Part shown: one piece after another, positions 43,782-44,621 of the stretch | How the letters are laid out: each line of letters begins with the position of its first letter | How positions within the stretch are numbered: the first letter of the stretch is position 1 | NCBI GenBank assembly: GCA_019239415.1 | Contig: JAFAZW010000006.1 | Span: 1,959 to 65,958 of the forward strand | Length of the DNA stretch: 64,000 nt | Direction: 5' to 3' | Source: Alphaproteobacteria bacterium | GTDB lineage: Bacteria; Pseudomonadota; Alphaproteobacteria; Sphingomonadales; Sphingomonadaceae | Program-made: the position numbers and the translations under genes | The notes under the pieces: generated by a model | The model's input: only the letters and a program-made list of their open reading frames with translations | Database searches by the model: none | Told to the model about the DNA's origin: nothing

Positions 43782-44621
43782 TCACGCGGCGATCTCCGCA
43801 TAGCCTTCGCGCTCCAGCGCGTGGGCGAGCTCGGGGCCGCCGGAGCGGACGATGCGGCCGTCGGCGAGGACGTGGACGAAGTCCGGCACGACGATGTCGA
43901 GCAGGCGCTGGTAGTGGGTGATGAGCAGCACCGCCTTGCCCGGCGCGCGCATGATGCGGTTGATGCCCTCGCCGACGACGCGCAGCGCGTCGATGTCGAG
44001 GCCGCTGTCGGTCTCGTCGAGGACGGCCAGGCGGGGCTGGATGATGCCCATCTGCACCATCTCGTTGCGCTTCTTCTCGCCGCCCGAGAAGCCGACGTTC
44101 ACCGGCCGCTTCAGCATGTCCATGGAGACGCCGAGCGCCTCGCCCTCGGCGCGCGCGACGCGCAGGAAATCGCCCGCCGACAGCTCCGCCTCGCCCCTCG
44201 CGCGGCGCTGGGCGTTCAAGGCCGTGCGCAGGAACTGGACGTTCGAGACCCCGGGGATCTCGACCGGATACTGGAAGCCGAGGAACAGGCCCGCGGCGGC
44301 GCGCGCGTCGGCGGAGAGGGCGAGCAGGTCGACCCATTCTTCGTCGCCCCGGACTTGATCCGGGGTCCACCTTCCTTCTTCGGCGCCGGAAGACAAGGTG
44401 GATGCCGGATCAAGTCCGGCATGACGAGGAACGGCGAACCTGACGGCGCCTTCCGTCACCTCATAGCCTTCGCGCCCGCCGAGCACATAGCCGAGCGTCG
44501 ACTTGCCCGCGCCGTTCGGACCCATGATGGCGTGCACCTCGCCGGCGTTCACGGTGAGCGAAAGGCCTTTCAGGATCGGCTTGCCGGCGACGGTGGCGTG
44601 GAGGTCTTCAATTCTGAGCAT
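43782..44621 (-). CDS. sufC: Fe-S cluster assembly ATPase SufC, carrying a ~32-aa repeat-derived insertion
   Basis: Walker A GPNGAGKST, Q-loop FLGFQYP, signature FSGGEKKR and Walker B AVLDETDSGLD are all intact. It is 279 aa versus 248 aa for E. coli SufC. Confidence 0.92.
   Translation of the reverse strand: MLRIEDLHATVAGKPILKGLSLTVNAGEVHAIMGPNGAGKSTLGYVLGGREGYEVTEGAVRFAVPRHAGLDPASTLSSGAEEGRWTPDQVRGDEEWVDLLALSADARAAAGLFLGFQYPVEIPGVSNVQFLRTALNAQRRARGEAELSAGDFLRVARAEGEALGVSMDMLKRPVNVGFSGGEKKRNEMVQMGIIQPRLAVLDETDSGLDIDALRVVGEGINRIMRAPGKAVLLITHYQRLLDIVVPDFVHVLADGRIVRSGGPELAHALEREGYAEIAA
44337..44431. repeat. family-B nested-hairpin palindromic element inserted in frame inside sufC
   Basis: Core arms are GTCGCCCCGGACTTGATCCGGGGTCCACCTT (from 44343) and AAGGTGGATGCCGGATCAAGTCCGGCATGAC (to 44425). 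The symmetry extends to TTCTTCGTC / GACGAGGAA. It encodes VPRHAGLDPASTLSSGAEEGRWTPDQVRGDEE. Confidence 0.8.

Follow-up and report, generated by a model that had tools for sequence, protein, structure and literature searches.

How does a palindromic repeat come to lie inside the reading frame of an essential and very conserved ATPase, and what keeps it there? The question is raised by sufC in a stretch of 64,000 nucleotides (nt) of contig JAFAZW010000006.1, from a member of the Sphingomonadaceae (hereafter the window). In this gene an inverted pair of hairpins of the repetitive extragenic palindrome (REP) class occupies, in frame, the place of a short turn of the protein. Here we describe the anatomy of this element, its copies elsewhere and the state of the same turn in related SufC proteins. 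One turn of SufC holds at least seven palindromic repeat families, or none, in closely related sphingomonads. This is new: a single SufC turn as an in-frame slot for many repeat families, with probable exchange of cassettes and conservation of their arms, was not found in the literature searched.

The REP dimer within sufC

An intact open reading frame (ORF) of 279 amino acids in the ORF list, at 43782-44621 on the minus strand, is sufC. It has the complete set of ATP-binding cassette (ABC) ATPase motifs, and a metagenome-assembled genome (MAG) at NCBI holds an identical protein annotated as Fe-S cluster assembly ATPase SufC. The protein is 32 residues longer than the 247-amino-acid homologues in which the site is empty, a net gain of 96 nt. 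In a HMMER alignment its residues 63-97 are placed against K63-G64-K65 of E. coli SufC (2d3w, 5awf), so that 35 residues (codons at 44331-44435, minus strand) stand in place of a three-residue turn. The inserted segment has no stop codon. Its GC content at third codon positions (GC3) is 54%, versus 94% in the remaining sufC.

The whole symmetric element (44334-44434, minus strand) is a near-perfect palindrome of 101 nt, in frame in sufC, and is composed of two inverted REP hairpins, a spacer between them and complementary flanks on the outside. Its 40-nt arms (44334-44373 and 44395-44434) are 83% complementary, with 21 nt between them. A 111-nt stretch folds as RNA at -68.1 kcal/mol, against -41.1 +/- 3.8 in 200 shuffled sequences (z = -7.1; 0/200 equally low), and as DNA at -37.9 against -19.1 in shuffles (z = -6.4). 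The minimum-free-energy structure of this stretch is a single long hairpin. The arm search, the folding and the HMMER alignment bear out the first-pass annotation, which had seen an in-frame palindrome in sufC and 35 residues where E. coli has KGK.

Each arm also forms a hairpin of its own, with a CGTC tag, an 8-bp stem, the 5-nt loop CTTGA and the tail CCA. In the sufC sense the 5' arm comes first (arm 1; 44399-44426, hairpin 44402-44426, minus strand). It reads CGTC-ATGCCGGA-CTTGA-TCCGGCAT-CCA, encodes RHAGLDPAS and has the same nucleotides in the window sufC and in the orthologues L002, L003 and L092. The spacer that follows (44370-44398, minus strand) is partly self-complementary (ACCTT...AAGGT), encodes approximately TLSSGAEEGR and differs in length and sequence among orthologues. 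Next is the reverse complement of CGTC-GCCCCGGA-CTTGA-TCCGGGGT-CCA, which is the 3' arm (arm 2; 44342-44369, hairpin 44342-44366, plus strand) and encodes WTPDQVRGD. The tags of the dimer therefore point outward, with about 29 nt between the CCA tails. The outer left flank (CCGTTCCT; 44427-44434, minus strand) has its complement in the outer right one (in the sufC sense AAGAATGG; 44334-44341, minus strand). The left flank codes for part of A-V-P and lengthens a beta-strand, and the right flank codes for part of E-E-W and lengthens the return strand.

REPs with the CGTC tag were defined by Di Nocera, De Gregorio and Rocco (2013, BMC Genomics 14:522; PMC3733652) as having this tag, a stem of 8-9 bp, in most cases with AT as its first two bases, a 4-5-nt loop and a CCA tail; TGTC or CCTC are permitted as variants of the terminal tag. 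They are found mostly as inverted dimers with a spacer of 20-100 bp, mainly in alphaproteobacteria, and no dedicated transposase is reported for them (PMC3733652). The Rickettsia palindromic elements (RPEs) RPE-4 and RPE-6 have been assigned to the same superfamily (PMC3733652). Both sufC arms carry CGTC (44426-44423 on the minus strand and 44342-44345 on the plus strand), the loop CTTGA and the tail CCA, and they form an inverted dimer. Both stems are of 8 bp. The first two stem positions are AT in arm 1 (ATGCCGGA/TCCGGCAT) and GC in arm 2 (G.T, then C-G); the latter subtype accounts for 3 of 97 copies of the family. The 8-bp stem and 5-nt loop agree with the published family CGTC-2 as its text description gives it. 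The sufC element is thus an inverted pair of CGTC-tagged REP hairpins inserted in frame.

Copies of this REP are widely dispersed. A degenerate pattern covering both arms finds it in at least 120 metagenome contigs. In 80 contigs examined there are 87 elements (77 single and 10 tag-outward dimers), of which 85 lie outside sufC and two in a sufC context. Because many of the metagenome copies sit in AT-rich flanks, the family reaches well beyond sphingomonads. Seven further arms are present in 1.06 Mb of sphingomonad loci. One intergenic copy in Sphingopyxis soli (L003, 10861-10927) is a twin of the sufC heterodimer, 27 nt 3' of the sufC stop and about 700 nt from the in-frame copy, with both REP subtypes in the same order and a spacer of 9 nt; it is a possible donor for gene conversion. 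In the window the 5-nt-loop subtype has a single copy, the one in sufC, while hairpins of the CGTC type in general number 11, versus 1.45 expected in shuffles. Three dimers that the first-pass annotation had grouped as 'family A' and likened in design to the sufC element (25308-25389, 51754-51840 and 62335-62417) proved to be tag-outward CGTC REP dimers with 8-bp stems and 4-nt loops (CGTCATCCCGGCGNAAGCCGGGATCTC). The anatomy and the dispersed copies together identify the sufC insert as a copy of a dispersed repeat class that is already described.

In-frame members of this class have likewise been known in sphingomonads since 2013. S. wittichii, S. alaskensis and E. litoralis are among the species with in-frame CGTC REPs in Additional file 3 of PMC3733652. 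The peptide of sufC arm 2, WTPDQVRGD, is also the in-frame REP peptide of TruB in S. alaskensis (Sphingopyxis), and DnaE2 of E. litoralis contains RHPGLDPGSRFSSRTAPEEAGPRLGDRGD (RHPGLDPGS...GPRLGDRGD). The first-pass annotation had read the insert as an RPE-like dispersed repeat translated into a surface loop, not described for sphingomonads or for SufC. Its comparison with RPEs is supported by the published superfamily and by the number of contigs with the REP, and the claim concerning sphingomonads fails. SufC is not among the hosts in Additional file 3 and is a new host.

Some positions in the published hosts are close to one another. The in-frame REPs of TruB have near-equal residue numbers in S. 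alaskensis (169-177) and E. litoralis (164-190), and those of DnaE2 are at 166-246 in S. wittichii, 175-203 in E. litoralis and 128-157 in R. palustris (PMC3733652, Additional file 3). According to the authors, genes other than Xanthomonas recB were struck at differing sites (PMC3733652). ORFs that span the metagenome copies are mostly spurious products of high GC content. The only further in-frame case that looks real is in two orthologous proteins with apparent twin-arginine signal peptides and no Pfam match (L114, 619-644; L101, 5849-5874). Here a REP dimer directly follows the signal peptide and the subtypes of the left arm differ (RHSGLDPES.. and RHTGLDPGS..), so these proteins may represent a second site with repeat turnover.

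One turn of SufC and its repeat families

Homologues were surveyed with the SufC query both with the insert and with the insert removed, which gave 190 close homologues. Nearly all of the 120 best are 273-300 amino acids long and have an insert at the same place; carriers include Allosphingosinicella MAGs, Sphingomonas rubra and Sphingopyxis soli. The query without the insert found 65 homologues of 247-252 amino acids with an empty turn, F-DG[KRQ]-DLL, and cores 84-90% identical to the query. All internal insertions of five or more residues among the 190 proteins are at core positions 62-65. Only two other insertions within the protein were seen, of four residues each.

At least seven kinds of insert, or an empty DG[KQR], are present at this turn in the 190 proteins. 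The kind in the window sufC, T1, has the form RHAGLDPAST..WTPDQVRGD. T1b begins RHPGLEPGSRF.. or RRPGLDPGQGF... The others are T2 (PVRAEPVEALP..SPSTGSGRT), T3 (RHCEERSDEAIQ..GLLRSARND), T4 (MCSGEGRSAGSQ..QGSGLRRST), T5 (PLPLAGGAGGG..PPLAPPASGRG) and T6 (LVSSEVETR..). Two proteins (P0088 and P0136) retain in-frame deletion remnants in which RHAG is joined to EEA and the hairpins are lost. The peptides are unrelated between types. Each kind of insert is a palindromic element at the DNA level and every type has copies elsewhere in the 1.06 Mb of sphingomonad loci; T5 belongs to a family of 36-nt units that is present at six places in the window. The filled types share the flanks F-(T)-P ... E-x-[IV]-DLL, versus F-DG[KQR]-DLL when the turn is empty, and the DNA of the filled flanks is mutually pairing, which lengthens the palindrome. 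The frame is kept in every insert and the loop length is near 30 residues.

The distribution of the empty state was followed in 80 loci from species-representative genomes. The turn is empty in all non-sphingomonad alphaproteobacteria and in most named Sphingomonadales, and therefore the empty state is ancestral. Filled sites are found only in Sphingomonadales, namely in Sphingomonas, in Sphingorhabdus and in three Novosphingobium MAGs with three different families. The insert is thus no private oddity of one genome, as the first-pass annotation had taken it to be, but one allele of a widespread and highly polymorphic site. The first-pass annotation had proposed to test whether close relatives lack the insert: empty alleles occur in relatives with cores 84-90% identical to the query, and many other relatives are filled, by various families. 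Two sequences with sphingomonad-type suf loci and SufC 77-80% identical carry the labels 'MAG: Bordetella parapertussis' (L027) and 'Enterovirga sp. GCM10030262' (P0083, with the same synteny); these taxonomic labels look wrong.

The form of the insert in the protein was modelled with AlphaFold2 from an alignment of 43 sequences. The model has a confident core, with a mean predicted local distance difference test score (pLDDT) of 79 and a predicted template-modelling score (pTM) of 0.78. This core superimposes on the E. coli SufC structures 2d3w, 5awf and 2zu0 (target-normalised TM-scores 0.85-0.88). Residues 68-92 have a pLDDT below 50 and are bordered by two lengthened strands (E53-65 and E94-98). 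The insert is predicted to be a disordered loop carried on the tip of a lengthened beta-hairpin. We take this hairpin to lie in the antiparallel beta-subdomain of the ABC ATPase, away from the face formed by the Q-loop and the helical subdomain that contacts SufB and SufD.

Probable exchange of cassettes and conservation of the arms

Is the type of insert inherited with the gene? Distances between insert-stripped SufC proteins were taken as p-distances and clustered by average linkage without bootstrap. The mean distance within types is 0.133, versus 0.142 for permuted labels, so that the type of insert is almost uncorrelated with the sequence of the protein that carries it. For each member of T1-T4 some empty-site protein is nearer than the median member of the same type, and pairs of different type differ by as little as 2.0-2.4% of their amino acids. 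At the nucleotide level L092 and L091, from the same metagenome, share 95.1% of the core and carry T1 and T2, with only 49% identity (unrelated) in the site region. L090 and L089 share 94.4% of the core; one has T4, the other is empty, and the site region is not comparable. Pairs with the same cassette have cores of 86-90% and cassettes of 74-79% identity: the window sufC and L092 (T1; core 88.8%, site region 76%), the window sufC and L002 (T1; 86.0% and 77%), and L005 and L091 (T2; 89.8% and 79%). Since the same cassette is found in diverged genes and unrelated cassettes in very similar ones, the cassettes predate the divergence of their host genes, which calls for exchange between lineages or for a recombining polymorphism of long standing.

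The close pairs do not differ by a clean insertion. About 10-25 nt of flank on either side also differs: four to five flanking codons in the T4/empty pair (L090/L089), and in the T1/T2 pair (L092/L091) about 25 nt on the left of the cassette and 10 nt on its right. Beyond these patches identity returns to background immediately in both pairs. We rejected a simple insertion with target-site duplication, as no duplication is seen in these filled and empty alleles. The patches suggest that cassettes spread by short-tract homologous recombination, which is possible because the sufC sequence on both sides is highly conserved.

The constraint on the arms was measured among six orthologues with the T1 cassette. 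Identity is 93% in the REP arms and 82% in the core, where codon positions 1 and 2 reach 88% and synonymous third positions 67%. Between genera the spacer defies alignment. In the window sufC and L092, a close pair, it matches at 24 of 31 positions, approximately the synonymous rate, against 52 of 54 for the arms. This pattern, together with the GC3 of 54% versus 94%, indicates that the arms are held at the nucleotide level and not by selection on the protein or on codon usage. Either gene conversion by other copies of the REP or a role of the DNA or RNA may be responsible. As for the gene, the ORF is intact in all carriers and the synteny of the suf operon is conserved. The excess of identity at codon positions 1 and 2 over synonymous sites shows strong purifying selection on the sufC core. 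By these evolutionary criteria the gene is functional.

Pairing in the stems is a property of the whole family. Of 97 REP copies, 96 have all three variable stem positions paired, versus approximately 42 expected under independent variation, and the combinations are ATG/CAT (44 copies), ATC/GAT (27), ACC/GGT (20), GCC/GGT (3) and GTC/GAT (2). It is therefore across the REP family that the hairpin is maintained. The two sufC arms differ at three stem positions, by two pair-preserving double changes (T-A to C-G and G-C to C-G) and a one-sided change (A-T to G.T). The first-pass annotation had treated the double changes as compensatory and as a sign of selection on the hairpin. They exist, and pairing holds across the family, but the arms are the subtypes ATG/CAT and GCC/GGT joined as a heterodimer, as also occurs among intergenic dimers, and so their differences give no evidence of selection within sufC. 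Among T1 orthologues there is one compensatory stem change (left arm of S. rubra, A-T to G-C) and there are two single stem-breaking ones. Covariation in situ was dropped as structural evidence for want of changes.

The best explanation, with a probability of about 0.72, is that the insert is a passenger loop which SufC tolerates, at a site where repeats turn over and are spread by short-tract recombination. CGTC REPs are non-autonomous, selfish palindromic repeats, and here a dimer of them sits, without breaking the frame, where a beta-hairpin of the SufC beta-subdomain has its tip. The dimer would be transcribed and translated with the gene, its REP-coded part forming a disordered loop of about 25 residues and its complementary outer flanks lengthening the two strands that carry this loop. 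SufC presumably tolerates the loop, which would have no sequence-specific function in the protein. The insert is one state of a polymorphic site, an ancestral empty DG[KQR] turn having been filled by at least seven families within Sphingomonadales. Filled and empty cassettes, each with a few flanking codons, would pass between lineages by homologous recombination over short tracts. Within a cassette the spacer would drift approximately neutrally, and the arms would be kept near the family consensus by gene conversion from other genomic copies or by constraint on the DNA or RNA. Adaptation at the protein level is not indicated, because the insert types are unrelated, the GC3 is atypical, the loop is predicted to be disordered, and deletion remnants and empty alleles exist.

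Several points weigh against this explanation. Conservation is higher in the REP arms than in the coding core, which a purely neutral passenger does not predict and which leaves room for a role of the DNA or RNA. Recombination is deduced from incongruence over a short gene (247 amino acids, a core of 714 nt) in mostly metagenomic sequences, and the case for translation and neutrality has ORF conservation as its one source. The REP has one copy in the 64 kb of the source genome that the analysis covered. Finally, the explanation does not account for the use of only this turn, at which no target sequence or target-site duplication could be defined.

The conservation of the arms could also mean that the hairpin is kept for a role in cis as nucleic acid in the suf operon, one that any REP dimer would serve: a stabiliser of the mRNA or barrier to its processing, a translation pause between sufB and sufDS, or a site for gyrase, integration host factor (IHF) or a cruciform-binding protein. 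The contrast of 93% in the arms with 82% in the core and 67% at synonymous sites, beside a spacer that is free to vary, would fit such a role. So would the very stable fold, the convergence of several unrelated families on one architecture, size and site, and the palindromic repeats that nearly every suf gene junction in the window carries. REPs are moreover reported to influence mRNA stability and to bind gyrase and IHF (background in PMC3733652). We nevertheless consider a cis role improbable. Empty alleles occur in very close relatives (94% nucleotide identity) and in most Sphingomonadales, the in-frame deletion remnants have no hairpins, and some orthologues have stem-breaking changes. A hairpin inside a coding sequence would be unwound by translating ribosomes. 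No Rfam family and no promoter- or terminator-like site was found at the sufC element, and the other palindromes of the window gave only sub-threshold microRNA-like matches. A functional, lineage-specific feature of the protein, such as a docking or regulatory loop whose likeness to repeats is secondary, is very improbable and already largely refuted. Its sequences are unrelated between types, close relatives do without it, the model predicts disorder, its codon usage departs from that of the genome, the same DNA is found as non-coding dispersed repeats, and conservation is at the nucleotide level, third codon positions included. The constantly kept frame, the length of about 30 residues and the flanks that make an extended beta-hairpin presenting the loop are what speak for it.

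A true insertion hot spot, at which some machinery recognises the turn sequence or the resident palindrome and each type is an independent transposition, is likewise unlikely. It would account for the single site used in 190 homologues. The sequence TTC GAC GGS MAG GAC CTG is a candidate feature, as it contains GACG, the complement of the CGTC tag, and the empty site usually has GACG; yet the same empty-site sequence is present in Rhizobiales, Rhodobacterales and Caulobacterales and no filled allele was seen outside Sphingomonadales in the 80 loci. REPs are known as targets of other mobile elements (PMC1525189), and there are precedents in the shared-site REPs of Xanthomonas recB and in the differing REP classes beside orthologous genes for REP-associated tyrosine transposases (RAYTs). 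Filled and empty alleles of sufC, however, differ by a patch that includes flanking codons, with no target-site duplication seen, and homologous spacers are common to cassettes of one type in hosts that have diverged by 10-14%; each type therefore arose once or a few times. More tentative than the passenger loop, and on the whole doubtful, is the idea that the turn is a dedicated 'landing pad' on which unrelated families replace each other in frame, by site-specific replacement of one REP by another or by selection for a hairpin in the transcript or DNA of the suf operon; either would be reflected in the persistence of the pad and in arms more conserved than the core. If replacement of REP by REP were true, it would show how the transposase-less CGTC REPs move. 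A landing pad would also mean that the polymorphism is maintained and not merely tolerated, and the REP positions in TruB and DnaE2 would be further pads.

Neighbouring repeats and related systems

The surroundings of sufC contain other genes and repeats of note. A DUF559 gene (Pfam; Vsr-like endonuclease) lies between sufB and sufC (ORF at about 44680-45035, minus strand). Two 36-nt inverted units (44635-44670 and 45036-45071) flank it exactly; they are 92% complementary and belong to the family CCCCTCCC..GGGAGGGG..GGGGTGGG. We considered it as a mobilising nuclease in the manner of a REPtron and rejected this. In most of 25 matching Sphingomonadales loci, several of them with an empty site, the gene is directly 5' of sufC, and it is therefore a syntenic resident and not mobile. 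Further inverted copies of the same family are at 40518-40609, 32510-32545 and 32597-32631, and one dimer is located just 3' of a FeS_assembly_P/DUF59 gene (40615-41070) that itself follows sufS. This family is the in-frame insert T5 of SufC in the Novosphingobium MAG L040 and in P0114. A small GIY-YIG nuclease gene (Pfam E = 1.3e-13) is surrounded by five REP copies on a metagenome contig (L129, Ga0307503_10000012, 3584-4349). It was rejected as a partner of the REP, with five GIY-YIG matches across all loci and no consistent linkage.

The sufD-sufS junction has a palindromic element (42271-42403) that spans the stop of sufD (42350) and the start of sufS (42344). About 18 residues at the C-terminus of SufD (..PSPLAREGGARREAVGG) and about 25 at the N-terminus of SufS seem to come from it. 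Across orthologous loci SufD is 243-398 and SufS 394-448 amino acids long. The intergenic region of sufC and sufD (43486-43782, about 295 nt) is unusually long and contains the short GC-rich hairpin repeats CTCCCCGGCACGGGGAGGGG and CCCCTCCCCGTTCCGGGGAGGAG.

How does the sufC element compare with known systems? It shares with RPEs its in-frame position in a functional protein-coding gene with an intact ORF. RPEs, which Ogata and colleagues reportedly described in 2000, are said to be palindromic repeats that lie in frame in functional genes and are translated into surface-exposed segments. The classic in-frame element, RPE-1, is approximately 100-150 bp long and specific to Rickettsia. The sufC element differs from RPE-1, which is longer and confined to Rickettsia, and its host is free-living, with a high GC content and a genome that is not reduced; its site also turns over among several families. 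The link to RPEs is the published placing of RPE-4 and RPE-6 in the CGTC class and not a comparison of consensus sequences. The closest likeness is to the CGTC REPs of Di Nocera et al. (2013) in tag, 8-bp stem, 5-nt loop, CCA tail, inverted dimers including heterodimers, variable spacer and in-frame intragenic copies that code for 20-30 residues. Those authors treated single genomes and reported neither a site with many families nor polymorphism among close relatives, and the GC start of one sufC arm departs from the usual AT. REPINs (Bertels and Rainey 2011, PMC3116915) are similar in that two inverted REPs and a spacer fold as one long hairpin with conserved arms and a less conserved spacer. 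They are made of GTAG-type REPs with a cognate RAYT (an IS200/IS605-like Y1 transposase), in contrast to the CGTC tag in sufC, and are described as extragenic. No transposase turned up with the sufC REP, although no search was aimed at RAYTs in the window or the loci. Two different REPs at approximately one place in Xanthomonas recB (PMC3733652) and different REP classes beside orthologous RAYT genes (PMC3686654) resemble the SufC site in that related strains have differing REP classes at an orthologous position. Either two species or an adjoining transposase gene is involved in those cases, whereas the SufC site has at least seven families and an empty state at one codon-level site of an essential gene in five genera.

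For annotation, the variants of SufC length (247 versus 277-291 amino acids) mirror repeat content and not paralogy. In-frame palindromic repeats are a textbook case of selfish DNA that makes new protein segments, and they are known mostly from Rickettsia. With SufC this process is seen in free-living sphingomonads, and in an ATPase that is both essential and very conserved. There are many natural alleles at one codon-level site: the empty turn, at least seven families and the deletion remnants. These alleles make testable how CGTC REPs arrive and are replaced, whether their arms are kept up by gene conversion or by function, and how large a foreign loop an ABC ATPase tolerates.

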